This document shows positions 1 through 62,974 of a stretch of 64,000 bases of DNA, piece by piece (position 1 is the first letter of the stretch; each line of letters opens with the position of its first letter). The notes below the pieces were generated by a model. The model saw only the letters and a program-made list of their open reading frames with translations. It was not told where the DNA came from and made no database searches. Where the stretch lies: assembly GCA_963514005.1 (NCBI GenBank), contig OY740790.1, forward strand, positions 29,512,001 to 29,576,000. Reading direction: 5' to 3'. This DNA comes from Raja brachyura. Lineage: Eukaryota. A program made the translations under genes and the position numbers.

Positions 1-2583
1 GGTGCATCCGCAGAGCAGCAGGATGCTCTAGCCCTCCTGTGTAGCCCACTTCGGGAAACTGTTTTAGTCAGAGCTCCATCCGGCCCGACATTAACCCTGA
101 ATTCGCTGGGTTGGGTCCTACCTCCACCACACCACCAAGACAGCTGTTTGGGGAGGACCTGCCCAAGCAGGTCAACGACGAGGCCATCAAGAACACATTT
201 GCACCAGCTCCCCAACAGCAGAAGCCTTGTTAGGGCAGAGCCAGCATAGACTACCTCACCACACACCAGCTGCAGGAACAAGGATTTACCGAGGCGATTG
301 AGCAGCACCCAGCAAAGACGGAATACTAGAAACCAGTACGTCAGGCCCGCCGGTAACCATGGAGGTAAGGGGGCCTGGTTCTCTTGGAAGTGCTGCATGC
401 ATAACCTCACAAGTAGGGGGGAGGTACATACATTCTGGGGCTCTGTTTGTCACTATCCAGGGAACAGAGCTATAGACATAATAGATGCATGTAACAGCCT
501 TGCTTGCGCCAGGGAACTGACTTTCGACATGCTGCTAAGCTATGGGTAAATTGGAGCTACATTCCAGCCACATAATTGGGTCGTTACGCTATCAAAGCTT
601 GGGTGAATAAGCAAAATCTCGGCAGGTATAGCGAATGCTGGACAATTACGAGCTTATGCAACTGCCAATCACAGCATAATTGAGGTACAATGGTGGATTA
701 GCAATGATTGTGATTGTTAAATCCCATCATTACATCAAACCTAGTAGTCGCGTTACAAACCGACGCAAGCACCAAGGGCTGGGGAACTACTGACACCATT
801 CCAGTTGGGGCAGCAAATGGGATTGCATGATTCTACTTTCTTCAATCACTAGGTATAAACTGTTAGATATGCTTGGAGCATGTCACCGGCTGCGCATTAA
901 TGCACTAATCTGCAGCATACGTATGTTCGTCTTCCAAAATAATACCACTGAGTTGGCATATTAAACCTTATGGGTGGTGTCAAGTTAATATCTTGGGATG
1001 AATTGGAAACATTAATTTGGCTCTGGTGGATTGAAAGAATTGGGTTCAGCTATGTACCTTCTGGATCAGCTCAATATAGTGGCGGACACCAGGTCACAAG
1101 TATTAATAACGACATCAAGTAGATTGAACCTCCAAATATCTGCTAAAATTATAGCCTAATATGGAATACCAGATTTCGACCTCTTTGCGTCCAGGTTCAG
1201 CCATTGGATACCAACATATGTCTTGAGAACTAGATCCTGGGGCAGTGGCGATGGACGCGTTTTCACTACATTGGGGAGAAATGCGGGGTTTCTATGCTTT
1301 CTCCATTCTGCTTCATCAGACAGGTGCTGCAGGATACGCAACCAGGCTCTGCAACATAAAGGACGATGGATGTCAAACAGCATCGTGCAGAGAGAGTCCA
1401 GTAGGAAGCAGTACCTCGCCTACATAAGGATATGGGAGGTTTCTGTAGTCGGACCTAGACCATCTACATATCTGCTATACTCTCCAAGCTGCTGGTATAC
1501 TCATGGGTCATCATTAGGATGTGTCCCTCAGTTACAGTGCCAGGAGTGCATTGTCGTCCTATCGCTAGATTGGACTGCGATGAGGTAGTGTTGACCTTCC
1601 TCAGGAGCTGGTCGCCCATGATGCAGATGGTCTTGCTCACCTTCAAAGTGGTTATGGTAATGGCACTGAACACAGCTCAACAGGTCATGACTTTACAGGA
1701 ATTAAACCTGGATAGAATGACCGGACCATAATAAGGTAACTTCTTTATAGAAGAATTACTTACACTACACAGACCTGGGACTACACGTCTGCAAATGGGC
1801 ATCAGATATATGGAGACGGGTCTGTTTCAGCCATGGAAACCCACGTCACAGGGTGATTGTGCAGACTATCTCCAGATGACACGAGGTGGTATTCGGTGCA
1901 GCAGGTAAGACACTAATATTTTAAATGTCATTCTATCAGGGCTGCATCCACATCAGTGGCAAGGACCATGGCGGTGTTCATGGATTTTGGCCTCGCAATA
2001 GCGAGCTGGGCCAGTGAATCTACACTTCAGCGGTTTTATAACTGATTTATAACCGCTCCCGCAACGTTGGCGGATTCAGTTTTAAGTGCTGTTCTCTAAA
2101 CGTTTGTCCCCGAGTTCAGGGGGTTATTGTTGTATTAACAAATGTTATTATTTTTCAGCTTGTTCAAGTCTGAAATACGTTAACATACTTCCTCCATCAG
2201 AATTACGGCAGTGTGTGAGCATGGGCGTGGTCCAGGGCATGTAATCACAGAGCTTTGAAATCTTCACGAAGTCACTCACGTGACTCCGAAGTAAAATAGT
2301 AAGATTAAACAAGAACTTACCAGTTTGAAGTTTGATCTTTATTTTATGAGGAGTTGCGATGAGGGATTTCGTGCCCTCCGCTCCCAACCCTCTATTAAAT
2401 ATTCAACTGGTATGGTCAAGTTTTAATCTTACTATCTTCGGTTTGTGATCTGTGATTCCACACCGCTGCTTTGAAGAATGTCGCGCATGCGTGCCTGGCG
2501 GGGTCTTCACGAAATCCCTCATCGCAACTCCTCATAAAATAAAGATCAAACTTCAAACTGGTAAGTTCTTGTTTAATCTTACT
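1..2583 (+). mobile_element. DIRS1-like tyrosine-recombinase retrotransposon, copy 1 (5' end outside the window; coding region broken by many indels)
   Basis: Collinear with the full-length copy at 35689-41060: gag end, TAACCATGGAGGTAAGG pol start (354-370), RNase H TTACAAACCGACGCAAGC (~753), MT-region GACCTCTTTGCGTCCAGG (~1178), YR remnants, then ICR and 3' terminus. Confidence 0.92.
2261..2583 (+). repeat. DIRS internal complementary region (ICR) plus right terminus, copy 1
   Basis: 2298-2373 is an exact 76-bp reverse complement of 2508-2583; 2261-2297 is complementary to the family's 5' end. Confidence 0.95.
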
Positions 2584-2740
2584 AACAAACTCTATTGGAA
2601 GTGAAATCATGGTGAGATGTGCATTGTGAGGGGCAAGTTGCTTTCATCCTAAAAATCCAATGTGCTCTTAAAAAACAACCTTGCATTCGACAGTATCTCC
2701 ACTTTATTGCGTCCAGATTGTGAAAATCCTTTGTGAATAG

Positions 2741-8984: not shown

Positions 8985-9440
8985 AGAGCATACTGTACAG
9001 TTGCATCACAGCTACATTCAGTAACAACTCTGCCCAAGACCGTAAGAAACTACAGAGTGGATGTAGCCCAGTCCATCACCAGACCTCCCACTATTGATTC
9101 CATCTATTCTTCATGCTAGCACAGAAAAGCAGCCAACATAATGAAAATCTTGTTCCAGTCCGGTCATTCGTTCTTCTACCTGCTCCCATCCACCTGAAGA
9201 TACAGAAGCTTGAAAGCACAGACTACCAGATTCATAAATAGCTTCTTCCACCCTTTATTCAACTTTATAGCGTCCTTCCATATGCTACTGTATTGTCTGA
9301 TTCACCTCTACGTTCTTGTGAGCATTAGACTTTGTATATGGAAACTGTTGCACTACAATGCTGAAAACTATATTATGCACTCTGTATCTTTCCCTTTCCT
9401 CTATTGATTGTACTTTGATTAGATTGCATTCATGCATATT
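8985..9440 (+). mobile_element. Rex1/Babar-type LINE 3' fragment
   Basis: Encodes LLPS..RYRSLKAQTTRFINSFF, the typical C-terminus of this clade, followed by the shared 3' UTR. Confidence 0.65.
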
Positions 9441-9444
9441 ATCT

Positions 9445-10207
9445 AAATGGTGGCCAATTAGGAAAAGGGGAGATGCAGTGCGACCTGGGTGTCATGGTAC
9501 ACCAGTCATTGAAAGTAGGCATGCAGGTGCAGCAGGCAGTGAAGAAAGCCAATGGTATGTTAGCTTTCATAGCAAAAGGATTTGAGTATAGGAGCAGTGA
9601 GGTTCTACTTCAGTTGTATAGGGTCTTGGTGAGACCACACCTGGAGTATTACGTACAGTTCTGGTCTCCAAATCTGAGGAAGGACATTATTGCCATAGAG
9701 GGAGTGCAAAGAAGATTCACCAGATTGATTCCTGGGATGTCAGGACTGTCTTATGAACAGAGACTGGATAGACTTGGTTTATACTCTCTAGAATTTAGGA
9801 GACTGAGAGGGGATCTTATAGAATCTTACAAAATTCTTAAGGGGTTGGACAGGCTAGATGCAGGAAGATTGTTCCCGATGTTGGGGAGGTCCAGGACAAG
9901 GGGTCACAGCTTGAGGATAAGGGGGAAATCCTTTAGGACCGAGATGAGAAGGTCTTTTTCCACACAGAGAGTGGTGGGTCTCTGGAACTCTCTGCCACAG
10001 AGGGTAGTTGAGGCCAGTTCATTGCCTATATTTAAGAGGGAGTTAGATGTGGCCCTTGTGGCTAAGGGGATCAGAGGGGATGGAGAGAAGGCAGGTACGG
10101 GATACTGAGTTGGATGATCAGCCATGATCATATTGAATGGCAGTGCAGGCTCGAAGGGCTGAATGGCATACTCCTGCACCTAATTTCTATTTTTCTATGT
10201 TTCTATG
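9445..10207 (+). mobile_element. CR1 LINE 3' fragment (young; open ORF 9473-10108)
   Basis: LVRPHLEYYVQFWSP, LYSLEFRRLRGDLIE, SRTRGHSL, FSTQRVVGLWNSLP; 3' UTR ends in (TTCTATGT)n. Confidence 0.95.
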
Positions 10208-11804: not shown

Positions 11805-13055
11805 TCACCTGTCTGCCTACAATGACTTGACATGCTTGCCACAGTCATGGCCAGCAACAGCAACAGTGAGCCGTTTCAAGTCAGATCAAGAGTGAAACAG
11901 GGATGCGTGATTTTCCCAAAATTGTTCACCATCTTCATTGCGACAACCATCCACATCATTCAAGATGACCTAGCCCCAGGAATTGAAATAGTCTACAGAA
12001 CAGATGGCAGGCTTTTCAATCTTGCCCGTCTCAAGTCCAAAACTAAGACATTTATGAGTTTCCTCATCGAGTTCCAATACGCAGACACCAACTGTGTTGC
12101 AGGTCTCTCAGAAAATCATCTGCAATAGATCCTGAATGCCTTCAACAGTGCATTCACGAAACTTGGACTTCCCATCAACTCCAAGAAGACTCAGGTTATC
12201 TACTAATCGTCACCAACTGAGTTCAACTTGGTGAAACAACCCTGGAAAATGTGGATCACTTTCCATACCTTGGACGTCACCTCTCCTCCAATGTCGACCT
12301 TGATGACAAGATCCAACATTGTCTTAAATGTGCTGGAACAGCTTTTGGACGTCTTCGAATGAGAGTCTTTCCAAATCGTGACATCCAAACAGACACCAAA
12401 ATGTTAGTGTACAAGGCAGTGGTGATTCCAATGCTCCTGTATGCATCGGAAACCTGGATACCATACCGACGCCATCTGAAAACACTTAAAAAGTTCTATC
12501 AACGATGTATTTGAAGCAGCTTAAATATCAGTTGGGAAGACAGGAGAACCAATGTCAGCGTGTTGAATGAAGCAAAAACATCTTGCCTCAAAGCCTTCAT
12601 CATCCAGAACCAACTAAGATGGGCCGGTCATGTTGTTCAGATATAAGACGTCTACCAAAGCAAACCTTCTACTCCCAGCTTAAAAAAGGCAAACGGAAAA
12701 GAGGCGGACAGAAGAAGGGATTCAAAGACACATTAAAAGCCAGCATGAAGAAATGTGCAATCAACATCAACAATTGGGAAACTAATGCCAAGGACAGGAA
12801 ACTCTGGCGAACCATCATCCATGAAGGAACAACGACCTTCGAAGCCAAGAGATGCACAGAATTAGAAGAAAAGAGAAGAAAAAGGAAAGAGAGACAGCAA
12901 CAACCAAAGCCCGATCTGCCATCTGGAATTACCTGTCCTGAATGTCAAATAACTTTCAAAGCTAGGATCGGATTCATAAGCCACCTGAGAGTCCATAAAA
13001 ACAAAAGAATGTGGACCATCATCCTCGACCTCGAGCGATAGCCACAACGACAACA
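11805..13055 (+). mobile_element. RTE-clade (BovB-like) LINE, 5'-truncated
   Basis: ORFs SEPFQV..VKQGCV, YRTDGRLFNL, QYAD, FPYLG, VYKAVVIPMLLYASETW, RLPKQTFY, and a C-terminal CPEC..FKARIG..SHLRVH knuckle; (ACA/ACG)n tail. Confidence 0.92.
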
Positions 13056-19088: not shown

Positions 19089-20386
19089 CTATTTATTTAT
19101 TTATTTATTTAAATTGTTATTAAAAGCAGTGTACAAAAGTATAAACCATGGTATATGACATAATACATTTATTGTACCGCTCCCATTTTCATTTTAACAA
19201 AGAAGAAATAGAAAAAGAGAGAAAGATCAAGAAAGAAAGAAAGTGAAAAAAGTGAATGTGTAAGAATAGAACCCCTAAATTACCAAATGAGTGTAATCAA
19301 AGCGTAAGCAAAAACTTAAGAAAAATAAAAAGACAAAGATGGAAAAAAAGGAAAAAAAAACGTGTTGATATACCTGTTTCATTTCTCACCACACCCATCA
19401 TCCAGTCCGTAAATCGGTTTAATTCCAAAATTTAGTTGCACCACACTATCCTTGCAATGAATCAATGAAAGGAGACCATATCTTTGAAAATTTCTCTGAT
19501 TTTCCTGTTCATATCTCATATGAGACTTTTCAAGATATGAGATATCTCATATGATATCTCAGATATCTCATCTCATATGAGATATGAGACTTTTCGCCAT
19601 TGGATTAAATTGCATGAATTGGATTAAAATGTGTCTGCCATTAATCGAACAATTATGTATATATAAGAGATATTTTTCCCCATCTGTCTTTGGAGATTTT
19701 TGGGCAAAATTCCTCTTCCAATTCTCTTCTAATTACGTCTGACAAGGGAATTTCTATGTTTAGAAGGATGTTGTACAAGTATGATATTAGATTGTTTGTG
19801 TCAGCCGTTTCTATTCATATTCGTCTAATATGTCTGGCAGCAGAGTTTGATAATTGTGGGTACATGTTTTAAAATAATCTCGAATTTGAAGATATCTAAA
19901 ATATTGATTACCTTTCAGATTGTATTTCAACTGTAATTTCTGAAATGATAGGAGGATTCCCATCTCGTACAAATCTACAACCTTTTTAATTACTAGTCTT
20001 TCCCAATAAATAAATGTTTTATCGAAAACATCTGATTTATCTGAACGACGGGTTATAAGCTATTGGAGAAAGAAGAGATAGATTTTTTAGTTTAAAAGTA
20101 GATTTTACTCATCATCAAATTCGTAAAGTGCTGTGAATAATCGAATTTTTCTCATATATTGTATTCTTCAACTTTATTGGGGAGAGGAGGATCATGACTA
20201 TATTAAAAGGCGAGCAATCCTCTCTCTCCATTACTAACCAGTCTACCTGTTGGCATGCGTTATCCAACCAGTAAATTAGATTTTTAATATTCGCTGCCCA
20301 TTAGTAGTATAAGAAATTGGGGAGCGCCAATCCACCCATTTCTATGGGTTTACATAGATGTCGTTTATGAATTCTATGTGATTTAT
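19089..20386 (-). mobile_element. L1-clade LINE ORF2 3' fragment with internal deletion
   Basis: Minus strand YKSHRIHKRHLCKPIEMGGLALPNFLYY*WAANIK (~20386-20281) and C-terminal FSKIWSPFI (~19490); T-rich 3' UTR and (AAAT)n tail at ~19090. Confidence 0.85.
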
Positions 20387-23300
20387 AATAGTAAGATTAA
20401 ACAAGAACTTACCAGTTTGAAGTTTGATCTTTATTTTATGAGGAGTTGCGATGAGGGATTTCGTGAAGACCCCGCCAGCACGCATGCGCGACATTCTTCA
20501 AAGCAGCAGTGTGGAATCTCAGATCATAAGACTAAAGAAAGTAAGATTAAAACTTGACTACACCAGTTGAACTTATGATAGAGGGCTGGGAGCGAAGGGC
20601 ACAAAATCCCTCATCGCAACTCCTCATAAAATAAAGATCAAACTTCAAACTGGTAGGTTCTTGTTTAATCTTACTATTTTAGTTCGGAGTCATGTGAGTG
20701 ACTTCGTGAAGATTTCAAAGCTCTGTGATTTCACGCCCTGGACAACGTCCATGCTGTCACACTGCCACAATACTTATGGAGGAAATTTGTTAATACATTC
20801 CAGACTGGACAGGCTGAAAAGTAAATGAATATTTATTAACACAAATAATAAAAAAAAAACTAACTCGGGGACAAATGAAATTACAGAGCAGCTCTCAGCA
20901 CAGCTTCCGCAAACGTTGCGGGGGTGGCCACTGGCTTGTTGTAGACCGCTGAAAAGTGGTTTCACTGGCCCATCCCACGGTAGCGAGGACATGATCCATG
21001 GGCACCTCCATGGTCCTCGCCGCTGATGTGGACGCAGCCCTGGTAGAATGAGATTTTAAAATGTTAGCATCTATACCTGCTGCATCCAACACCTCCCTGA
21101 GCCACCTGGCGATAGTCTGCGCAGTCACCCGGTGATGTGGTTTATTATGGCTGATGAGTAGTCCCTGCTCCATCTTCCTAATGGTACGTGTATTCTTGAT
21201 ATAATATCGAAGATGGGTGACTATGCAGAGGGTGACGTCAGTGGGATACGCCAGGAGTTCCAGCTGCACCCCTGCAGATCCTGGCCTATGCTGCTTAAGG
21301 AACTCTTCGATAAGAAGATAAGAGGGGTAGAGACCACCCTGTCGAGACGCAGTTTTTGTAAGGTCTGCACCCACTGTGCCGTTGTTAGTGCCATCAACAT
21401 TACCACTTTGAGGGCGAGTCTAGTAAGCGGTAAACCTGTCATGGGAGACCAGCTTCTCAGTAGGGTCAACACTACCCCAACATCCCATGTGATGATATAT
21501 CTGGGTCGTGGAGGGTTGGTATTAAACACTCCCTTCATAAATTTAGACACCAGCTGGTTTGACCCCACACCTATGTTAAGGTATGAGGATAGTGCGCTCC
21601 TTGCGCTATTGATGGCACTGTAGCTGAGACCCTCATCATAATGAAGGCCCGCCAGTCATTCCAGGACATCAGGAATCATAGCAGTTGTATGTCGTGTTAG
21701 TCCGTGTGCAGTAGGATTCCCATTTCCTGACCTGGGTGAGATACTGCTTCCTTGTAGATACTCTGCACAATGCTGTGATTAGATCCATGGCCCTCGGTGA
21801 TATACCAGCCTCCAGAAGTGGTCTCCTTAGAACCTGCAAGCCAACAGGTTTAAGTGACCATGACATGGATGAATTTCCCCAGTAATGGGGTTAGTGACCA
21901 AATTAGGGCTTTTCAAAATTTGACCCCATGGAATTTTTACCATCTGGAGGACCATCGGGTACCATGGTTGAGTAGGCCAGTCGGGTATAATCAGTATACC
22001 TGAAGCAGCATCCAACTTGATTTTCTGCAATACCCGACTGATGAGGCAGAATGGGGGAAATTAGTAGCAGAACCATTTCTCCCAATGGAGAGAAAATGCA
22101 TCCATTGCTACTGCCCCAGGGTCTGGTTCCCAAGAAACATATGTTGATATCTGATAGTTCAACCTAGACGCAAAAAGGTCAATATCTGGTATACCGAACT
22201 TAGCTATTATTTCAGCAAATATTTGGGGATTCAACATCCACTCGATGTTATCATTAAATACTCGTGACCTGGTTCCGCCATTGTATTAAGCTTCCCTGGA
22301 AGATAGGTTGCTGATATCCAAATATTCCTTTCAATACACCAGAGCCAAATTGTGTTAACTAATTCATCACAAGATACCTGATACCACCGATATGATGTAT
22401 GTAGGCTACCACCGTGGTATTATCTATTTGAAGACGGACATGTATATGATGTAAGTTTGTGAAATATCCCCGTAGCCCATGGAAAACTCCTAGCATCTCC
22501 AAATAGTTTATCCCTTGTGACTGTAGAAGAGTAAACTCATGAGCATCCGATGTGCCACCACAACTGGACACGGTGTCAGTCACTCACTAACCTTGGGCAC
22601 TTGCGTCGGTTTGTAATACGACTGATGGGTTGGAGACAATGATGGGTTTATAACAGTCTCTAATATTGTTAGTCCACCATCTTAGCTCAATTTATGCCTT
22701 GATCGGCAGCTGCATAGGTCTGTCAAAATGTCAGCGTTAAAATCGAATGCTGGACATTTTTGCTCTTTGTAAATTTTGATAATGTAATGGTCCAAATTGT
22801 GCAGCTGGAAATGTAGCTACAAGTTTCCAAATTACCTTAGCAGCATGTCTAATAGTCAGCACCCTAGCGCAAGCAAGGCTGTTGCATGAATCTTGAATAT
22901 AAGCTAATTTACCAGCTGGGATAGTGACAATCATCTGATTGGTGTTAATAGTGAAACCCAGATAATCCATGACCTGCTACGGATTGAATTTAGATTTGTC
23001 TGGATGGATGACAAACCCTAACTTCTCAAATAATGATATGGTAGCTGCAACTGCCAGCTGAGCCAATTCTAAAGTTTTCCCCACTATTAATATATCGTCC
23101 AAATATGCCATGACGATATGAATTTGCACTCGCTGATATGCGAGGCACATTAGCTTGTACCTTTTTCCCACCAGCCCTGACTTTGGGTGATGGTGGGATG
23201 AAGTCAGGGTCTACACGGCCCTGCTCCTGTGCGGAGTCCCATCCAGCTTGAAGTGGAGGCGAGTCGGTCCCTACCGACTCCATAGGGCTCACCGACTTCC

Positions 23301-23537
23301 GCATCTTTTTCCCCGGCCGTAACACGGGTGCTGCCGGTGTTTCGGGCAGCTCCGAGGACGTTGGCCGCTGTCTGCGACTTTTGGAAAGTTTACCTTTCCC
23401 CTCCATCATCCTGTAATATCAAAATATCACAGAGAACCAGCTCAAGGTTAGTTAACTTACCTTCATCCGTCTTTTTGAAGGAGCTGTTGTGGAAGTGCAC
23501 TCGCCCCCCAGCATGCCGTTAGCAAATGCAAGCGACA
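20387..23537 (-). mobile_element. DIRS1-like retrotransposon, copy 2 (about 2.15 kb internal deletion; left ITR lost)
   Basis: Minus ORFs: gag start MMEGKGK, YLDD, IDNTTVVAYI, MT region and YR HSTRAAS; ICR and 3' terminus at 20390-20720, ending CTTACT|ATT inside the L1. Confidence 0.95.
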
Positions 23538-35360: not shown

Positions 35361-35763
35361 AAGACACCCACACTGCCACTGAACATTGGGGGTTGCTTGA
35401 GTGTGAGCTGGAAAAGTGGGCTCAGCATTCATAGTTGAACCATTTGTTGCCCATTATTAATGTTCCAAGTAAAAAGAAAGCTTAAAAAAGGACAGTGGAA
35501 AATTTATATTTATATATCTTTTCTCATAGAGTGAATACAGCATGAACCAAGCCCTTCGTTTTACCAAATTCATGCTGACCCATTTACACTACTTCCATTT
35601 TATATTCTTGCCACATTCCCATCCACCCCAGCCAGATTCTATCATGTAACAAGTAAGAAGTTCATTGTTTAATAGACAGTATATAACAATTTTACTTTGG
35701 AGTCAAGACCCCGCCAGCACGCATGCGCGACATATCATCGCTCGCATTTGCTAACGGCATGCT

Positions 35764-35796
<33 letters not shown>

Positions 35797-35888
35797 ATGC
35801 GCTTCCCCAACAGCTCCTTCAAAAAGACGGCTGAAGATAAGTTAACTAACCTTGAGTTGGTTCTCTGTGATATTTTTGATATTACAGA

Positions 35889-37691
35889 ATGATGGAGGGG
35901 AAAGGTAAACTTTCCAAAGGTTGCGGACAGCGGCCAACTTCCTCATAGCTGCCCGAAACACCGGCAGCACCCATGTTACGGCTGGGGAAAAAGATGCGGA
36001 TGTCGGTGAGCCCTATGGAGTCGGTAGGGCCAGACTCGCCTCCACTTCAAGCTGGTTGGGACTCCGCACAGGAGCAGGGCCGTGTAGACCCCGACTTCAT
36101 CCCACCATCGCCCAAAGTCAGGGCTGGTGGGAAAAAGATACAAGCTAATATGCCTCGCATATCGGCGAGTGCCTCTTCCGTTTTACAGGTCTCTAGAGGG
36201 CAGACCTGGGGAAGAGCTGCGCTGAAGTTGAGCTCCGCAGCTGCGGTGGGCATCGACAAGCCGCAGGGGAAACCTGCTAGATTGCAGGCCGGCAGCAGTA
36301 CTGCTGGAGAGTCGGGAAGCCCTGCAGGAGCAGGAGGTACCGGCATTCCACCGGGACAGGCTGCTGGAGCGCAGACCGGTGGGAGCAGTTTTCGGTCAGG
36401 CACCCCCGTTGCGACGGGTATAGCCGACCATGCGCCGTCACGGACCCGTGTGGTCAAGGGTGACGGCAAGACTGCATGGACAATGGGGAGCCAGCTATGG
36501 GAGCCGGCACAGACTCATTCCCTCTGCCTTCCCACCAGGCAGAGGGGCTGCTAATGTCCAAACGACGGCAGACTAGCAGTATGTCTGTGCGGAAGTCGTA
36601 CAGCCCCGCAGGAGCAGTTGCTGACGATGACCTATCAGCGCACATCAATGAGGTCCGACCTACTGGTAGAAGTCCCAGTGTCTCAGGAGAGCCTGGGGAT
36701 GTCGGCTTGTTGTCTGCGTGTAGCGGCGGCGGTCGCATGGCCAGAATGGAGCAGATGGTGGAGGTGTTGTATCAACGGGATCTGGAATGGCAAGAGCGTG
36801 AGTTTCTGAGGTCTGGGAGCCAGATCAGGCCGCCGCTTTCGATTTCACCTTCGTCTGTTGCCAGTAGACAGAGTCAACATATGGTTGATTTTGAACACAT
36901 AGCGGCAGGAGATGAGCCCACTGCTCCAGATTCAGAAGAAATGCTGGACGCAGTATCAAAGTTTGGGAAGCCAACAAGTGCAGGGGACCCCTGCATCCCA
37001 AACTTGCGGCAAGTATCAACTTTTTAACGACTCACCAGCTCCAATATCAGGTGGTTGCTGAGACCATGGAGAAGTACAATGTTCCAGCAAATTGTATTTC
37101 CCTCAACGTGCCGAAAGTTAATTCACCGATCTGGGGGAACATCAGCAACAACACCAGAACACAGGAGGGCAAGCTTCAGAGGATTCTGAAGCTGCTAACA
37201 TCAGGTATCACGGCGTTCGCCAGGACCCTTGATGGAGCGGATGTATCTGAGGAGCAACAGGATGCACTAGCCCTCCTGTGCAATACTCAATTTGAAATCA
37301 ATTGTTTCCGTAAAAGCTCCATTCGGCCCAACCTCAACCCAAAGTTTGCTGGGTTGTGTCGCACCTCCACCACACCACCACCAAGACAGATGTTTGGGGA
37401 GGACCTGCTGAAGCAGGTCAACGAATTAGACGAAGAAGCAAAAACATTGGGGCTCATGAAGCCACCTTAGTCTTCGAAAGGCCAGGCTTACCGAAGACAG
37501 CAGCCTTATCCCCCCTCTAAGCCTAGGGGGCAGCCGGATAGATACCAGAGAACCTATCCACCACGAACATATCCACCACCAGCTCCCCAATAGCAACAGT
37601 CTTTTTTAGGGCAGGGCCCTCTGAAACCCACATGGATGATCCGGCAACACAAAGACCACAAAAGTCACAACACCCCAGACCCCGGCGTTAA
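35889..37691 (+). pseudogene. DIRS gag-like ORF1 (premature stops and frameshifts)
   Basis: Begins MMEGKGK as in copy 2; continues through ORFs 35973, 36476 and 37051 (PANC..LNVPKVNSPIW, RKSSIRPNLN, MFGEDL); inferred stop TAA at 37689. Confidence 0.75.
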
Positions 37692-37693
37692 CC

Positions 37694-39619
37694 ATGGAGG
37701 TAAGGGGGGTTTGGTTCTTTCCAGAGAGTAGCAGTTGTAACTTCACAAGTTGGAGGATGGTTGCAGGAGTTTAGGGGTGCATGGGGAGCGGTAACCTCAG
37801 ACCCCTTTATTCTACAAAGTATTCATGGTTATGTAATAGAGTTTATTAATGATAAAATTCCCCCTACGCAGCATGTACCTCATCGCAAGTTTGCGCTCTC
37901 TCAAAAAGAGATAGAGGTAGGACATGCGGAAATTTTAAGATTAGAAGCTAAAGGGGTGATAGAGAAAACGACACATGTACCATTAGAGTTTGTGTCCAAC
38001 ATCTTTACAAGAGCTAAAAAAGATAGTGGATGTCGGATTATCATTGACCTAACCCATTTGAATACTTTTGTACAATACACCCATTTCAAAATGGAGACGT
38101 TTGAGACGGCTAAGCAATTGGTTAGCCAAGGGTGCTTTATGGCCTGCATTGATTTAAAAGATGCATACTATACAGTCCCTATCATAGAACATCACAGGAA
38201 ATTCTTGAAATTTGTCTGGAAGGATCAATTGTGGCAGTACAAAGCTTTACCCAATGGAATCACAACAGCACCTAGGCTATTTACAAAAATTATTAAACCT
38301 ATTCTGGCATGACTCAGAAAACAAAATCATATCGTCATGGCATATTTGGATGATATGTTGATAATGGGGAAAACTTTAGAATTGGCTCAGCTGGCAGTTG
38401 CAGCTACCATATCATTATTTGAGAAGTTAGGGTTTGTCATCCATCCAGACAAATCTAAATTCAATCCATCGCAGGTCATGGATTATCTGGGATTCACTAT
38501 TAACACCAATCAGATGATTGTCACTATCCCAGCTGGTAAAGTAGCTGATATTCAAGAGACATGCAACAGCCTTGGTTGCGCTAGGGTGCTGACTATTAGA
38601 TATGCTGCTAAGGTAATTGGGAAACTTGTAGCTACATTTCCAGCTGCACAATTTGGAACATTACATTATCAAAATTTACAAAGAGCAAAAATTTCAGCGT
38701 TAAAATCAAATGCTGGACATTTTGACAGACCTATGCAGCTGACGATCAAGGCAAAAATTTGACTAAGATGGTGGACTAACAATATTGGTGACTGTTATAA
38801 ACCCATCATTGTCTCCAACCCATCAGTCGTATTACAAACCGACGCAAGCGGCGGGGGAGCGACTGACACCGTGTCCAGTTGTGGTGGCAGATGGGATGCT
38901 CATGAGATCACTCTTCCACAGTCACAAGGGATAAACTATTTGGAGATGCTAGGAGTTTTCCATGGGCTACGGACATATTGCACAAACTTACATCATATAC
39001 ATGTCCGTCTTCAAATAGATAATACCACGGTGGTAGCCTACATAAATCATATGGGTGGTATCAGGTCGGTATCTTGTGATGAATTGGTTACACAATTTGG
39101 CTCTGGTGTATTGAAAGGAATGTTTGGTTATCAGCAACCTATCTTCCAGGGAAGCTTAATACAGTGGCGGACACCAGGTCATGAGTATTAAATGATAACA
39201 TAGAGTGGATGTTGAATCCGCAAATATTTACTGAAATAAAAGCCAAGTTCGGTACACCAGATATTGACCTTTTTGCGTCTAGGTTGAACCATCAGATACC
39301 AACATATGTGTCTTGGGAACCAGACCCTGGGGCAGTAGCAATGGACGCATTTTCTCTCCATTGGGGGAAATGGTTCTGCTACGCATTTCCCCCATTCTGC
39401 CTCATCAGTCAGGTATTGCAGAAAATCAAGTTGGATGCTGCTTCAGGTATACTGATTATACCAGACTGGCCTACTCAACCATGGTGCCCGGTGGTCCTCC
39501 AGATGGTAACAATTCCATGGGGTCAAATTTCGAAAAGCCCTAATTTGGTCACTAACCCTATTACTGTGGAAATTCATCTGTGTCATGGTCACTTAAACCT
39601 GTTGGCTTGCAGGTTCTAA
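37694..39619 (+). pseudogene. DIRS pol: reverse transcriptase, RNase H and DNA N6-adenine methyltransferase-like domain
   Basis: IDLKDAYY, LPNG..TAPRLFTK, YLDD, LQTDAS, INYLEM, IDNTTVVAYINHMGG, PDIDLFASRLN, DAFS..W..YAFPPF; several stops and frameshifts. Confidence 0.95.
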
Positions 39620-40562
39620 GGAGACCACTTCTGGAGGCTGGTATATCACCGAGGGCCATGGATCTAATCACAGCATCGTGCAGAGTATCTACAAGGAAGC
39701 AGTATCTCACCCAGGTCAGGAAATGGGAATCCTACTGCACACGGACTAACATGACGTACAACTCTGCTACGATTCCTGATGTCCTGGAATTCCTGGCGGG
39801 CCTGCATTACGATGAGGGTCTCAGCTACAGTGCCATCAATAGCGCAAGGAGTGCCTTAACATAGGTGTGGGGTCAAACCAGCTGCTGTCTAAATTTATGA
39901 AGGGAGTGTTTAATACCAACCCTCCACGACCCAGATATAACATCACATGGGATGTTGGGGTAGTGATGACCCTACTGAGAAGCTGGTCTCCCATGACAGG
40001 GTTACCGCTTACTAGACTCACCCTCAAAGTGATAATGTTGATGGCACTGACAACGGCACAGCCGGTGCAAACCTTACAAAAACTGCGTCTCGACAGGATG
40101 GTCTCTACCCCTCAAAAAGTAACCTTCTTTATCGAAGAGTTACTTAAGCAGCATAGACCAGGATCTACAGTGCTGCTGCTGGAATTCCGGGCGTACCCCA
40201 CTGATGCCACCCTCTGGATAGTCACCCATCTTCGATATTATATCAAGAATACACGCACCATTAGGAAGATGGAGCAGGGACTACTCATCAGCCATAAGAA
40301 ACCACATCACCGGGTGACTGTGAAGACTACCGCCAGGTGGCTCAGGGAGGTGTTGGATGCAGCAGGTATAGATACTAACATTTTTAAATCTCAGTCTACC
40401 AGGGCTGCATCCACATCAGTGGCGAGGACCATGGAGGTGCCCATGGATCATGTCCTCGCTACCGTGGGATGGACCAGTGAAACCACTTTTCAGCGGTTCT
40501 ACAACAAGCCGGTGACCACCCCCGCAACGTTTGCGGAAGCTGTGCTGAGAGCTGCTCCGTAA
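39580..40562 (+). pseudogene. DIRS tyrosine recombinase ORF
   Basis: SAINSARSAL, PPRPRY..TWDV, (H>Q)STRAAS, GW.SETTFQRFY; 13-nt deletion at ~39855 relative to copy 2. Confidence 0.93.
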
Positions 40563-41097
40563 TTTGATTTGTCCCAGAGTTCGGGTTTTGTTTATTATTT
40601 GTGTTAATAAATATTCATTTACTTTTCAGCCTGTCCAGTCTGGAATGTATTATCAAACTTCCTCCATCAGTATTGCGGCAGTGTGACAGCATGGACGTTG
40701 TCCAGGGCGTGAAATCACAGAGCTTTGAAATCTTCACGAAGTCACTCACGTTACTCCAAAGTAAAATAGTAAGATTAAACTAGAACTTACCAGTTTGAAG
40801 TTTGATCTTTATTTTATGAGGAGTTGCGATGAGGGAGTTCGTGCCCTCTGCTCCCAGCCCTCTATCATAAGTTCAACTGTTATAGTCAAGTCTTAATCTT
40901 GCTATCTTTAGTCAATCTTGTGATCTACGATTCTACACCGTTGCTTTGAAGAATGTCGCGCATGCGTGTTGGTGGGGTCTTCACGAAATCCCTCATCGCA
41001 ACTCCTCATAAAATAAAGATCAAACTTCAAACCGGTAAGTTCTTGTTTAATCTTACTATTAAACACTCCTGACTTGACACACAACTGTTTAATTTAA

Positions 41098-44090: not shown

Positions 44091-44508
44091 TTTGGCTCCT
44101 ATCCCTCTAAATCTGAATCTTTCCTAATCATGTATCTATCGAAGTGTCTTTTAAATCCTGTTATCGTAACTGGCTCGTATCGTTCCTGTAGCAGCTCCTT
44201 CCATCTACCCACCACCCTCTTCACCACAATGACCAAGTTTGGTATTCCAAAAAACGCAAGCAATCATGGGATTTGCCAAAGGTCATTCACCTTTTTTTTT
44301 TAAAAGGAACAAAGCGCAGGCTGAAGAAATCGTGCATAAATTCTTATCTTTATTCATAATTTATGTGTAAAAATATATTTAATCTGAGGAACGGGAGTAC
44401 CCTGTGGTCACATTGTAGGAAAATTAATGTATTCCAGACTAGAACACAACGATGATAGTTTGAGTCAAACTATTCTGCTAATTTCAAGGCAATGAATGGC
44501 ATTCTCGA

Positions 44509-44526
44509 TTAGGGTTAGGGTTAGGG
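44509..44526 (+). repeat. Short interstitial telomeric sequence (TTAGGG)3
   Basis: Three exact units, flanked by the direct repeat ATTCTCGATT (44501-44510, 44527-44536). Confidence 0.9.
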
Positions 44527-45682
44527 ATTCTCGATTCCAGTGAGACGCCCATAAATGGTCAACACCTCATCCCCCCCCCCCCCCCCCCCCCAAAAGGAGC
44601 AGGTAGCAGGAGAGCAGGGTGTAACAACGAGAGAGAGGGGGCAGATGCGAGTGGAAGACAGGGGAGGGTGCGCACACAGACACACGCCTGAGCAGCGGGA
44701 TCGAGCCCGGGTCCCCAGCACCGTGGGTGCTGCCGAGCCGCTGCTGGGATGCCCCACCCCACCCCACTCCACTCCGGGTGTCCCGTCCTGGCCAGCGGCC
44801 CCAGCCCACAGCCAGCGAGAAGAAGCACCTACTCCAAATCCGCCTGTCCCGCCACACCAACCGACAGCCCCTGACCGATGACAGCAGCGGCCCCAGGCCC
44901 GCAACCAGTGCGGAGAAGAAGCATCAATTCCAGCTCAACTTCGCTCCATCTCTCGAGGAACCCGCTCCCCAACGGGCCGGGGACTGCCAGCGGCCGCCGG
45001 CCAGCCCCCAACGTGCCTGCGAAAGCCGAGCGCCTGCCATCAACAGGGATACACACAAAGCACTGCAGCAACTCAGCTGCCTCCTCCCCGCACTGGCTGC
45101 AAACCCAGCCCGACACCTCCGGCTGCCCCCGGACAGGGACGGGACACCCGGGAGGGGACAGGGTCGGCCCAGCAGCAACTAAACAGCACTCGCAGCACTG
45201 GAGACCTGGATCCGGATCCGACCCCGACCCGACCACGGACGAGCACGATCTCACTCACTCACCAAAGCATAAAGCAATAAGAATGCCAAAATAATCTTGC
45301 TTTTAACAAAGGAACAATAAATACTACTAATTCATAGTTTGAAAACAGTATTTTCTTCCCTAGAAGAATCAAACCTGAAAAACCCCCAGAAAAAGTGAAG
45401 GAGCATACACAGCTCCACTGCTTTCCAGCAATGTCTATGCATAGTGACCTTTGACCTGGGCATGTGCGGTCAGGATACCAAACTCGCTTTTATTTATGTG
45501 TCGGGTCATGTGTCAGCTTGTGTGGTAGGAACTTAATTGAAGATTTGGTGAGTTGTTGCAATTTTACTGTGAGTAAAATATTCTAATTGATTGAAGTATA
45601 CAGCATGGAAACAAGCCCTTTGGTCCATCGAGTTCATGCAGACCATCAGTCTCCCATTCACAACAGTTCTATGTTATACCAT

Positions 45683-46170: not shown

Positions 46171-46244
46171 CAGAGAACAATTATCCTACAAGCCTGCATG
46201 TCTTTGGAATGTGGGAGGAAATGAGAGTACCTGGAGAAACTGGA

Positions 46245-46688
46245 GGAAAGATTGGATAGACTCGGCTTGTACTCGCTGGAATTTAGAAAATTGAGGGGGG
46301 ATCTTATAGAAACTTACAAAATTCTTAAGGGGTTGGACAAGCTAGATGCTGGAAGATTGTTCCCGATGTTGGGGGAGTCCAGAACAAGGGGTCACAGTCT
46401 AAGGATAAGGGGGAATTCCTTTAGGACCGAAATGAGGAAAACATTCTTTACACAGAGAGTGGTGAGTCTCTGGAATTCTCTGCCACAGAAGGTAGTTGAG
46501 GCCAGTTCATTGGCTATATTTAAGAGGGCGTTAGATGTGGCACTTGTGGCTAAAGGGATCAGGGGGTATGGAGAGAAGGCAGGTACGGGATACTGAGTTG
46601 GATGATCAGCCATGATCACATTGAATGGCGGTGCAGGCTCGAGGGGCCGAATGGCCTACTCCTGCACCTATTTTCTATGTTTCTATGA
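46245..46688 (+). mobile_element. CR1 LINE 3' fragment inserted into a minus-strand SINE
   Basis: ORF 46252-46596 nearly identical to the end of ORF 9473-10108; TTCTATGT tail. Confidence 0.95.
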
Positions 46689-46991
46689 AACCCATTCATT
46701 CACAGGAAGAACGTGCAAACTCCACACACACACACAGCACCCGAGGTCAGGATTGAACCTACATCTCTGGCGTTGGAGGCAGCAGTTCTACCAGTAGTGT
46801 CATTGAGCTACCTATCAAAACACATGTGATATAATTTGTAGTGCTTAACGAAAGTAATAGAAAACTATTTTTTTGTGAGGGGAACAGAACGAAAAAAGCA
46901 ATATCTCATTATCATTAAGGAAAATGTCACCTGCCAGTGTGGGACTGGGACATTTTGAATTTACAAAATGGGTGGCAATAAAGTTCACCCA

Positions 46992-47605
46992 AACATAGAA
47001 AATAGGTGCAGGAGGCGGCGATTCGGCCCTTCGAGCGAGCACCGCCATTCATTGTGATCATGGCTGATCGTTCCCTATCAATAACCTGTGCCTGCTTTCT
47101 CCCCCTTAACTCTCCTAGCCCCTAGAGCTCTATCTAACTCTCTCTTAAATCCATCCAGTGACTTGGCCCTCTGTGGCAGGGAATTCCATAAATTCACAAC
47201 TCTCTGGGTGAAAAGGTTTTTTCTCACCTCAGTCTTAAATGACCTCCCATTTATTCTAAGACTGTGGCCCCTGGTTCTGGACTCGCCCAAAATTGGGAAC
47301 ATTTTTCCTGCATCTAGCTTGTCCAGTCCTTTTGTAATTTTATATGTTTCTATAATATTCACCCTCATCCTTCTAAACGCCAATGAATATAAGCCTAGTC
47401 TTTTCAATCTTCCCTCATATGACAGTCCCGTCATCCCAGGAATCAATCTTGTGAACCTACGCTGCATTGCCTCAATCACAAGGATGTCCTTCCTCAAATT
47501 ACGAGACCAAAACTGTACACAATACTCCAGATGTGGTCTTACCAGAGCCCTATACAACTGCAGAAGCACCTCTTTACTCCTATACTGAAATCCTCTTGTT
47601 ATGAA
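46992..47605 (-). mobile_element. CR1 LINE 3' fragment
   Basis: ORF 47078-47569 LVRPHLEYCVQFWS...NLWNSLP. Confidence 0.95.
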
Positions 47606-49439
47606 ACATAGTACTTTTTTTATCCTGAAGGTGATAACCTTTCACGCTTGCTTTGTAAAGCCTACATTGTTCTCCGAAGATCGTAAAGGATATCTTTATA
47701 ATTTGAACCCTATGGGAAATGACAGATATTGAACATGGAACAGAGTTCCCAAGACATTTAAATGTTCAATCTCAATAAACAAGACTTCCCTGTGGGAGAC
47801 ATGCATGTTCCACAGAGACTTCAGAGGAAAATATCCTAACAAATGCTTCAGATTTTTAATCAGATTTCTATAAATTTCCGGAAATAGATTACCAGAAACA
47901 TCAAAGTCAAACTTGGAAATTATTTAAATTTATGTTAATTTACTTTATGTTATATTCTAATCCCAATTTTCACTCAGTTTCAATGCCCTCGGAGTTTAAA
48001 TACTGACTGGATAATCTTGCATGACTTTGGGGCAATATTCAATTGTGTGAATAGCTCAGTCATTCAATACAACTTTGTCAAGTAATTTTCAGTCATTTTA
48101 ACTTGGGTTCGTCACAACTGGAGGTCTGGACCCTAATTAAAAATGTTCATTCTTATCAAAGAAATTTTATCTGCCATGGAGTGCTCCCTCAATGCTTCTT
48201 TGAAGTGCCAAGATTGTCTACTTTTGAACTGATCTCTACGGTTTCCGACTTAGAGGCATGCTTGTTATTAACTCCCTCATCCAGGTCCAAAGAAAGAGGG
48301 GGGGGGGGGGGGGGGTTGTCATTGATGAAAGAGCACAGTTTTAAGGTAAAAGGGGAAGAGTTTGAAGGAGATGTGTGACGTGGGTGGTGGGTTCCTGGAA
48401 TGTGCTGCCAGTGGGTAATGGTGGAGGCAGATGCAATAGCAGTGATTAACGGGCATCGATAGGCACTTGGATATGCAAGGAATGATGGGGAATGGATCAT
48501 GTGTCAGCAGATGAGTTTGGTTTAGGCACAAGGAACTGCAGATGCTGGAATCTTGCAAAGTACTGGAGTCGGTGAGCATTCTGAGGAACATGGATAGGCA
48601 ATATAATTCAGGTCAAGACCCTTCTTGAGAATGAGTTTAGTTGCGGAGAGAAATGAACCCCCCCATCACTTATACCCACCTAACACTTGCCAGGCTTTCT
48701 CACCTATTTTGTAGCTTTCTCTCCTTCACTACAATCAGTGGGAAGAAGTGTCCTGACCCTGGACATCGCCTATCCATGTCCTCCAGAGATGCTGACTGGT
48801 CCGCTGCGTTATTCCAGTCCTTTGAGTTTAGTCCATCTTGGCATCATGTGTGGTACAGATGTTAAGGGCAGAAAGGCCTGTTCCTGTGCTATACTTTTCT
48901 ATGTTGTTGGTTCCAATTCAGTGTCTCATTCAGCTGCTGAAGATAATCTTAATCAGAAGACACAATTGTCTTCCATTCTTAAAGCAAATATTATATCGGA
49001 GGTGCAGATTGCTTTCTTTATTGGACAGTTGATCAAACAAACAGCATTAATTAGTATGTTTCAAAGATACACATGGACCAGAATATGATGATGGAAAAAT
49101 GAAGGACCAATTTTTATACTGCTATCCAATCTTCAGTGCCACTGCTTATATAACATAAAGCCTATTATGAGAGCTAATCCTTTATAATGATTAAATCAGT
49201 GAAATTGGATTATAATTACAGGCCATAATGGAAGTGTAATCTTTGGGTTGACTCTCATAATTGCCAGCATAATTGCAATTAATGGAGAAGACATTGTGTT
49301 TGTTTATGTTAGTGGTACCAGCACTTCCCTGACATTACTAACAGAAATTAGAGAACATTAAGTGTGTGCAACAAACAATTCTACCCATGTCTGAAATCAC
49401 TATCATCTATTATTCTGGTCTGTGATTCAATCCCATGTT

Positions 49440-59394: not shown

Positions 59395-60150
59395 AGAGAA
59401 ACATAGAAACATAGAAAATAGGTGCAGGAGTAGGCCATTCGGCCCTTCGAGCCTGCACCGCCATTCAATACGATCATGGCTGATCATCCAACTCAGTATC
59501 CCGTACCTGCTTTCTCTCCATACCCCTGATCCCTCCAGCCACAAGGGCCACATAACTCCCTCTTAAATATAGCCAAAGAACTGGCCTCAACTACCTTCTG
59601 TGGTAGAGAATTCCAGAGACTCACCACTCTCTGTGTGAAAAATGTTTTTCCCATCTCGGTCCTAAAAGATTTCCCCCTTATCCTTAAACTGTGACCCCTT
59701 GTTCTGGACTTCCCCAACATTGGGAACAATCTTCCTGCATCTAGCCTGTCCAACCCCTTAAGAATTTTGTACGTTTCTATAAGATCCCCCCTCAATCTTC
59801 TAAATTCTAGCGACTCCAAGCCGAGTCTATCCAGTCTTTCTTCATATGAAAGTCCTGACATCCCAGGAATCAGTCTGGTGAACCTTCTCTGTACTCCCTC
59901 TATGACAAGAATGTCTTTCCTCAGATTTGGAGACCAAAACTATATGCAATACTCCAGGTGTGGCCTCACCAAAACCCTGTACACCTGCAGTAGAAGCTCC
60001 CTGCTCCTATACTCAAATCCTTTTGCTATGAATGCTAACATACCATTCGCTTTCTTCACATGCCTGCTGCACCTGCATGCCTACTTTCAATGACTGGTGT
60101 ACCATGACACCCAGGTCTCGTTGCATCTCACCTTTTCCTAATCGTCCACC
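59395..60150 (-). mobile_element. CR1 LINE 3' fragment (same subfamily as 9445-10207)
   Basis: ORF 59493-59861, ACATAGAA tail, similarity over ~750 bp. Confidence 0.95.
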
Positions 60151-61554
60151 AGTATATGGAGTACCGACCCAAAACATCATCTCTCCATGCTCTCCAAAGA
60201 TGCTGCCTGGCGCCCAGTCACTCCAGCACTTTGTGTCATTATTTGCATCTAAGGCATGTCGGGACTGATGCAGAGATTTGAAACATTACACTACATTGGC
60301 CTGTTGCAACGCTGTCTAACCTTTCAGTCCAACCAGTCCATGGGGACATTTATTAACACTTGAACATCCTTCCATTTTGTCTCAAATAGAGGACAGGTCT
60401 CAGGTGAGAAGGGCAAGATTTAATAGGAACCCGAGGGGCAATTTTTTCACTCAGAGGTTGGTGAGTATATGGATGAGCTGCTAGAAGAGGTTGTTGAGGC
60501 AGATACAATGACAGCATGTAAAAGACACTTGGACAGATACATAGATTGGAAAGGTTTAAAAGGAAATGGGCTAAATGTGGATGAATGGGACTAGCTTAGT
60601 TGTGGCATCTTGGTTGGCATGGACGAGTTGGGCTGAAGGACCTGATTCCATGTTGTAGGATGTGTTGACTCCATGACTCTGTAACTAAATCTAGCAGGAA
60701 TACACTCCATCATGTCACATAGAAAATAGGTGCAGGAGGAGGCCATTTGGCCCTTCGAGCCAGCACCGCCATTCATTGTGATCATGGCTGATCGTCCCCT
60801 AGCAAAAACCCGTGCCTGCAAGTGTATGTTCCCCCTCATACACTTGCTATTCAGTCCCTTAGCTACATCTGTGCCATCAGCTTTAACCACTCAATTTGCT
60901 TTCAAGTTTCACATTCTCCCCACCCCGAGGGAGAGATAAAGGTCAGTGGGGATGTGTCAGACTGAGAGGAGGATCGTCTTCCATTCCCCCACCAACCTGA
61001 TGTAGCTCCTTTTCCATTGCTACTGAGAGGCTAAATGCAAATTGGAAAAAAAAAAAAAATCTAATTTTTCTCTTGGGTAGCTTGCAACTCAATCGTATGG
61101 ACATTCAATTTTCCAGTTTCAGGTAACCCAATGCACAAATTCACTTGCCAGCCAAGGTTTCTTCTCCCCTTGTTCATTCTTTATTATTATTATTAGATTC
61201 TTTATTAGATTCTTTATTTGTCATTCAGACCTTTCGGTCCGAACGAAACTCTGTTTCCCTGCAGTCCTACATATAATTAAAAATAAAAAAATAAAAAAAT
61301 GACAGAACACACAATAAACACAAATTTAACATCCACCACAGTTTCACCAAACACCTCCTCACTGTGGTGGAAGGCAAAGTCTTAAAGTCTGTGTCTCTTC
61401 CCTCTTTGTTTCCCTCTGCACCGAGGTGATCCAGGCCTCAGATGCCGCGACCGCACTGGGCGATGGCAAGTCAGTCCCGCGGTTCAACCGAGCTCCACGA
61501 ATGGGTCGGTTCAACTCCGCGGCCTGGGGGGTCCATCGGGCCCGTGGTCGGGCC

Positions 61555-61980
61555 GCTGCAACCGCTCCGGGACCAAGTCGGGTCGCCGCCCCGGGACCGA
61601 GTTGGGTTTCCGCCGCCGCTGTCGCCGCCGCCGCTGCTGGAACCGCTCCGGTAGTCGGGCCGCCGCTGCTGCTGCCGCCGCCGCTGCTGGAACCGCTCCG
61701 GTAGTCGGGCCGCTGCTGCCGCCGCCGCTGCTGGAACCGCTCCAGTAGTCACTGGAACCGTTCCAAGAGTCGGGCCGCTGCTGCCGCCGCCGCTGCTGGA
61801 ACCGCTCCGGTAGTCACTGGAACCGCTCCGGGAGTCGGGCCGCCGCCGCCTGCCGCTGCTGGAACCGCACCGGTAGTCGGGCCGCCGCCGGAACCGCTCC
61901 GGGAGTCGGGTCGCCGCCGCCACCACCGCCGGAACCGCTCCGGGAGTCGGGCCGCCGCCGCTGCTGGAACCGCTCCGGGC
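61555..61980. repeat. GC-rich minisatellite inside an unclassified ~0.87-kb element (~61190-62060)
   Basis: About ten variable units of GGAACCGCTCCGG(T/G)AGTCGGGCC(GCC/GCT)n. Confidence 0.85.
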
Positions 61981-62974
61981 CCGAGGCCGCCAGCTCCACC
62001 ATTAGGCCTCGGCGCAGACAGAGACTGGGAATACGACAGAAAGTTGCACCTCCCCCCCCCTCAGAAGGAAGATTCTTCCTATCACCTGCCTCCTTCCTGT
62101 TACTACTGGACTCCACCTATCACCTACCAGACTCTGTCTCACCTCGCTCGCTCACCTTTGTTCATAATCCCCTCCTCATCTGGTTCCCACCACCATCTAC
62201 CAGCCTCTATTCCACCTCTCCTGAAACATTAACTTGCATCTTTTGTTTCCACAAATGCTGTGGATCCATTGAGTTCCCACAGCATTCCAGCTTTGGTTCT
62301 AGATTCCAGCATCCACAGTCTCTTTTGTCTGCTCACTCTTGTTTTTGACAGGAATCTTGGAAGAGTGCACACATTTTAAAACTAATATGAAAATTGTGTT
62401 GCAAGATGGGATCAGAAAGTACTTTGCCACCTCCTCAGGCTCCCTCACTCCACAACATTAATATTGCAGGAAAGTGAACTGATTCACCTTAGCCTGGGAA
62501 GGCTTAGCTGTGGCAATGTGGACTGATTAGAAGGTAGAATAAGCCCAGTTAGCTGCACTTCTTACAGCAAGCGAGGAAGAAGTGTAGGAGGCACTTGTCA
62601 CTTGGATGGACAAGGCTAAGCTTCGAGGTAAATACATAATATTGCCAATGTCGATGAAATTCTCTCTGTACTGCCAATCATACAAGAACAGTCACTTTGA
62701 GAAATAGAAATTGACCACAAGAAGGCAGAGGTGATGAGATGAATGACCATATAAACCAGTGCTGTGAAAAAAATCCCAATTATGTTTAAAGCAGTAGAGT
62801 CACAGAAATATACAACATGGAAACAGACCCTTTGGCCCACCAACTAAATGACAACCATCAACCCCCCCCCCCCCCCCCCCCATTTACATTAATACTACAC
62901 TCGCACCAAGTTTTATTCTATCAACATTTACATTATCTTCCCTCAGATTCCACCATCTAACTCTACCATATAAC

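Follow-up and report, generated by a model that had tools for sequence, protein, structure and literature searches.

A gag −1 slippery site and a pol-skipping splice may together supply the tyrosine recombinase of DIRS1-like retrotransposons

In retroviruses and Ty3/gypsy elements, env is made from a spliced RNA that skips pol, and the −1 frameshift from gag to pol of HIV-1 takes place at the heptamer TTTTTTA (UUUUUUA). The DIRS1-like element described here is like HIV-1 and other retroviruses in that a predicted spliced subgenomic RNA would skip pol, and the same heptamer is present with the same F-L-G and F-F-R readings in the two frames. However, the donor is located 3' of the gag stop as well as of the frameshift site, and a single slip would thus serve two alternative enzymes. 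Retroviral and Ty3/gypsy env also has its own start or that of gag, unlike the tyrosine recombinase (YR) here.

Alternative splicing in plant Ty1/Copia elements (short-GAG) yields Gag only, according to the available part of PMC5580714. Protein output would be controlled by alternative splicing near the end of gag in both cases, but here splicing would lead in frame into another enzyme. In Ngaro elements, YR has been proposed to be made by frameshifting from RT/RH (Poulter and Butler 2015, as quoted in a passage of PMC13003380), and YR occupies the −1 frame over the end of pol, as it does here. In 28 of 44 families scored in this study, including that of the element in question, the open pol/YR overlap nevertheless holds no slippery heptamer, and the splice would take its place. 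The available passages of PMC3266345 and PMC9210276 describe DIRS1-like YR retrotransposons with the same gag, RT/RH/MT and YR ORFs, ITRs, ICR and short pol/YR overlap; they give no splicing or translation mechanism for DIRS1 ("splic" and "intron" occur 0 times in both) and mention no pol-less copies with exact intron loss such as those found here. Literature searches, together with word searches of the accessible text of PMC7192593, PMC9210276, PMC13003380, PMC3266345, PMC3783388, PMC4495291 and PMC6681497 turned up no paper on DIRS splicing or a Gag-YR protein, although Goodwin and Poulter 2001, Poulter and Goodwin 2005 and the Repbase notes may mention splicing. The recombinase ORF of DIRS elements often has no start codon, and in the literature searched the question of its translation is unanswered.

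The DNA analyzed, referred to as the window, is a 64,000-nucleotide stretch of the genome of the skate Raja brachyura. The element at about 35688-41060 is a dead, decayed DIRS1-like copy (Table 1), and its family, designated family A, is an ordinary DIRS1-like member. One related locus (L031) has open frames of 544 aa for gag and 643 aa for pol. In a family copy, Pfam searches matched pol to RVT_1 (E 9e-17), with RT structures matched too, and YR to PF13495 and PF00589. Because RVT_1 was the only Pfam match of the 643-aa pol, the protein has no protease and no DDE integrase by this measure; RNase H and methyltransferase likewise gave no Pfam match in it, and the motifs TDAS, DLFAS, FPPF and DWPTQPW that follow the RT are those we take to be RNase H-like and methylase-like. 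Residues R155, K183, H265, R268, W291 and Y301 of YR are invariant in 30 alignment rows. The ICR and right end pair within the window (40765-40843 with 40982-41060), and in other copies the ICR pairs with the left end.

Table 1. Features of the DIRS1-like element, in window coordinates.
Feature	Position	Strand	Remark
Left terminus / left ITR, shortened in window copy	35688..35733	+	35702-35733 inverse to 40953-40984
Candidate leader intron before gag ATG	35837..35887	+	donor AT here, GT in most copies
gag (ORF1), stops and frameshifts in window copy	35889..37691	+	ends TAA 37689-37691
Predicted −1 slippery heptamer T TTT TTA	37602..37608	+	gag S-F-L-G, pol F-F-R
pol-frame ATG, 2 bases past gag stop	37694..37696	+	39/39 other family-A copies
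Predicted splice donor GAG|GTAAGG, phase 0 in pol frame	37697..37705	+	conservation and junction copies
Putative intron holding nearly all of pol	37700..39612	+	pol frame ends 39619
Predicted splice acceptor ...TTGGCTTGCAG|GTT, phase 0 in YR frame	39593..39615	+	TG[C/T]AG| in families A-E
Tyrosine recombinase (YR) ORF	39613..40562	+	frameshifted near 39855 in window copy
Internal ATG, YR codon 16, GCCATGG, rival start	39658..39660	+	absent in family D
Internal complementary region (ICR)	40731..40843	+	inverse to both termini
Right ITR and extension	40953..41060	+	inverse-repeat matches

A sequence-only reading of the window had proposed that a donor two codons past the pol ATG is spliced to an acceptor in the pol/YR overlap. 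Both sites are where it placed them: ATG (37694-37696) and GAG (37697-37699) are followed by GTAAGG (37700-37705), and in the acceptor, TTGCAG|GTT at 39612/39613, position 39613 is a YR codon start. The polypyrimidine tract, which it had called weak, belongs to an acceptor of moderate score (7.9 bits, rank 4 of 181 AG sites) by weight matrices built from vertebrate frequencies. The predicted intron thus defined has GT..AG ends, compatible phases and conserved sites, as U2-type introns do. Joining the two sites does keep both ends in phase, but the in-frame recombinase that the reading envisaged is broken in this copy, where the YR frame stops after 83 residues, gag has early stops and pol is damaged as well. 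The acceptor recurs as claimed in copy 2 (window 20386-23509, minus strand). The donor of copy 1 does lie in an exact 20-nt run (at 354), but this run is unexceptional beside other coding runs of 24, 19, 18, 18 and 18, and copy 1, which also lacks the acceptor region, was discarded as support. Copy 2 lacks the donor region, as gag is largely absent from it and its pol has lost the 5' portion (36172-38322 in window equivalents); its internal deletion was rejected as a splice product because the ends are not at splice sites. These two other window copies therefore support the splice weakly.

Alignment of further copies and related families showed donor, acceptor and phase to be kept. Among the 39 of the 40 best family-A matches that are not the window copy, the donor GT is intact in 37, and CAG|GTT is intact in all 35 that cover the acceptor. 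Protein searches yielded four more families in the same genome (B-E) and 80 metagenome loci, which clustered at 80% into 45 families (A-D and 41 others, with E added later). By weight matrices of the same kind, a phase-0 donor of at least 7.5 bits sits at the homologous place in 27 of the 33 families with the 5' region of pol, as against 12 of 361 control windows in pol, these being, like the other family counts, counts over families that share ancestry. The donors of the 33 families divide into 27 in phase 0, 6 in phase 1 and 0 in phase 2 (controls 12, 16 and 3 of 361), and in 26 no more than one GT site elsewhere in the element outscores the best local donor. A clear phase-0 donor was not seen in 5 of the 33.

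On the acceptor side the families fall into two classes, separated by roughly a single switch on the YR tree. In 12 families (near class) the YR frame is open for less than 80 nt upstream: YAG falls precisely at YR codon 1 in 10 of them, another carries its phase-0 acceptor at −42, and the last is frameshifted. In 33 of 44 scored families (one locus being too short), the frame is open for at least 200 nt upstream (far class), and an open upstream stretch of 210 is reached by 3.3% of 1465 control points. The best phase-0 acceptor of the far class lies at −200 to −222 in 32 of 33 families, within a pyrimidine-rich F-P-P-F-S motif in which protein-level constraint also makes the AGY serine difficult to replace, and in 10 families the frame opens exactly at the acceptor, the stop being the acceptor's own TAG. 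In both classes, then, the YR frame is kept open upstream only to the phase-0 acceptor. Within families A-E, YR codons 3-15, which precede the internal ATG of family A, vary mainly at third positions (changes 87/43/131), indicating that they are under constraint at the protein level. No spliced gene models were found among the N-termini of 120 YR homologues.

In copies of the sister family E the splice appears to have been recorded in DNA. A degenerate junction probe gave five matches, two of which are DIRS copies in which gag runs straight into YR at the exact donor and acceptor bases; the other three lie outside DIRS coding regions and were rejected as chance. With one junction copy as query, all 40 matches listed span the junction. 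In each of the 30 loci fetched and examined, pol is missing exactly from donor to acceptor and gag meets YR at the predicted bases, and genome-wide the exact junction probe found 92 sites (90 AAG|, 2 GAG|) against 0 for the control. Unspliced family-E copies hold an intron of 1885-1918 nt between the same bases. The right flanks of three junction copies differ from each other. In flank trees of 13 of the 30 junction copies and 21 unspliced rows, a single clade of junction copies was rejected (p-AU 0.0007 with both flanks, 0.002 with the upstream flank), from which it follows that the exact junction arose in at least two lineages, with the proviso that recombination between copies can fake two origins. 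The examined family-E junction copies carry a copy-1-like 5' part and are recombinants in that sense, and one of them has a nested insertion inside YR (L190 1959-2251).

These junction copies are new evidence, and they are likely to be retroposed, that is reverse-transcribed, spliced RNAs; the DIRS-1 RT can act in trans (available part of PMC7192593), which would make such copies possible. From the sites, their phases and the junction copies together, we consider it very probable that the splice from this donor to this acceptor occurs in this DIRS clade. Junction probes detected no such copies of family A in the genome, also with 2 mismatches allowed, nor any of families B-D. No donor-acceptor joint was present among 15 of the 53 joints obtained when four of six runs of unrecorded kind were set against the window copy. 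The GT..AG joint of the junction copies is found in one contig of run X3, whose shorter side spans just 26 letters.

How the recombinase would be entered from a spliced RNA is suggested by the sequence upstream of the donor. In family A the gag frame reads S-F-L-G at the TTTTTTA heptamer and stops at a TAA just 5' of the ATG, and the pol frame opens 114 nt before the donor in most copies (98 nt in the window copy). A search expression failed to match 11 of the 39 family-A copies; among the 28 thus scorable, 24 have a pol frame free of stops over the 114 nt from TTT TTT AGG to the donor. An X XXY YYZ heptamer lies in the right frame inside the open overlap. Across families, 24 of 33 carry a T6/A6 heptamer placed so that a −1 slip would lead into pol, versus 24 of 164 control windows. 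No clear conserved 3' stimulatory structure was seen (mean z −0.79 downstream versus −0.05 upstream over 27 sites; family A −0.97). With a slippery heptamer ahead of the donor and an open pol frame, RNA left unspliced would seem to yield Gag-Pol, and the spliced form Gag-YR.

The T-run itself differs in the larger lineage of junction copies. It is 2 nt shorter in 26 of 28 of these copies (2 were unmatched), while the T6 run is intact in 22 of 22 scorable unspliced copies. The shortening places gag in frame with the linker and YR, giving nearly the product of a −1 slip. In four copies of the lineage the frame crossing the junction extends 252-407 codons upstream of it, one copy has an open frame totaling 730 codons, and the upstream part of a read-through copy is 54% identical to family-A Gag. 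In most of the lineage the YR frame ends at codon 230. The shortened T-run is a single founder event, and as evidence for a gag-YR fusion it is only suggestive. Selection on YR in this lineage was set aside as support: pN/pS is 0.020/0.027 within the large junction clade, and between-group values are confounded by recombination.

Combining these observations, unspliced RNA would be translated into Gag and, by a −1 slip, Gag-Pol, while RNA spliced from just past the gag stop to the YR acceptor would give Gag and Gag-linker-YR, a fusion that would carry YR into the particle. Family A would splice as family E appears to. The −1 slip is probably the main entry into YR, and the scheme as a whole, in which ribosomes on a pol-skipping spliced RNA slip by −1 late in gag to make YR, is in our judgment likely. 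More broadly, we lean towards the proposal that in a widespread animal DIRS1 clade a single gag −1 slip and alternative splicing together switch the output between Gag-RT and Gag-recombinase, and that retroposition of spliced RNA took place at least twice, founding pol-less families in one of which the frameshift became locked as a Gag-recombinase fusion gene.

The sequence-only reading had a different purpose for the splice, namely to give YR the pol ATG. The splice has gained strong support, but its role as a supply of this ATG has not, since the ATG stands two codons before the donor in just 3 (A, C and D) of the 28 families with a clear phase-0 donor, and 17 of those 28 have no pol-frame ATG within 60 codons of the donor. 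Supply of the ATG does not generalize as the purpose of the splice; in family A it may be an extra start or route. A version of that reading in which the splice is real and ribosomes re-initiate past the gag stop (TAA-CC-ATG), so that pol and YR alike begin at this ATG, is in our view unlikely. The ATG is indeed in good context two bases past the stop, is intact in all 39 other family-A copies, and is kept in four of the five families of the skate genome (A, C, D and E). Yet two family-E copies have ACG, the youngest family of the genome, B, has ACA in its place (4/4 copies), the ATG is absent from all 24 metagenome families scored, and the pol frame is kept open for another 114 nt, as far as the slippery site. 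The slippery site upstream is the likelier entry into YR.

Alternatively, the T-run and the AG at 37609 might form an acceptor joined to the leader donor; the resulting 114-nt exon would carry an ATG, and pol and YR would each have an mRNA that lacks gag. The occurrence of TTTTTTAG in all five families of the genome, a strong leader donor, and an ATG in the exon of families A, C and E are in keeping with this, but family B has no exon ATG, and several families have TTTTTTG, TTTTTTC, TTTTTTAT or AAAAAAC, of which TTTTTTG, TTTTTTC and AAAAAAC, being without AG, cannot be acceptors. Junction copies also retain gag, and a probe for leader-to-T-run junction copies of family E found none, a weak negative. 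Such an arrangement is quite improbable.

Still less probable is that no functional splice exists, the signals being by-products of pol codons, the junctions DNA or template-switch deletions at microhomology, and YR being translated from the ATG at 39658 or by a pol-to-YR frameshift. The junction does have 4 nt of microhomology (AG|GT), the internal GCCATGG is intact in 33 of 35 covering family-A copies, and such a frameshift has the Ngaro proposal quoted in PMC13003380 as a parallel. However, 49,391 pairs of places share a 4-mer, and against these roughly 49,000 choices the identical junction arose in at least two lineages; GT..AG ends were found in 0 of 13 other gaps of more than 60 nt in family-A copies. 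Furthermore, a YR-frame ATG is missing up to +60 in 14 of 44 families (up to +312 in family D), and the overlap heptamer that a pol-to-YR slip would use is missing from the 28 families mentioned above.

That the donor mainly makes a gag-only RNA, with the YR-side acceptor just a means to drop pol, is equally hard to credit. In its favor, no more than about 10 nt separate the donor from the gag stop, the donor and a 3' TTTTCAG persist in the non-autonomous copy-1 family, which has lost the YR acceptor, and plant Ty1/Copia offers a precedent (available part of PMC5580714), but phase 0 at both ends (with 27, 6 and 0 donors in the three phases) and a YR frame held open to the acceptor would go unexplained. 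A gag-only role and a YR role of the donor can hold together.

The exact-junction copies probably constitute a DNA record of a splice in the germ line and of spliced RNA mobilized in trans, and they make the question of YR translation directly testable. They show one way in which non-autonomous DIRS families arise, and they suggest that DIRS ORF annotations would miss a Gag-linker N-terminus.

Several further features of these elements were observed. Families A, C, D and E and the copy-1 family share signals for a candidate leader intron (GTAAGT donor, CTAAC, and an acceptor just 5' of the gag ATG); the intron is only about 51 nt long in family A and is still present in 2 of 2 junction copies checked. 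The leader of the window copy contains a run of about 33 G (35764-35796) that is far shorter in other copies. In the 3' UTR, at window 40606-40629, AATAAA is followed by a strong acceptor-like TTTACTTTTCAG, also seen in family D and the copy-1 family.

The genome harbors at least five DIRS families, with about 60,000 YR candidates at first look. In family B, 127 YR copies were scored; they are 99-100% identical, and almost all have open frames. Seven equal or near-equal family-D YR matches lie on one strand at about 70-100 kb spacing (G000:C14:44.58-45.05 Mb), which suggests a segmental tandem array. The DIRS family to which copy 1 (window 1-2590; L080-L085) belongs is non-autonomous and very young (1761 candidates; the 40 matches scored are all about 100% identical); its pol and YR are degenerate, but it has a long gag-like region. 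Elsewhere in the window, fragments at 9419-10204, 46225-47641, 59397-60151 and 12571-13041 are presumably related to CR1/L2-type LINE 3' ends, and the regions 61330-62350 and 44500-45300 are GC-rich and repetitive, with several long open frames on both strands.
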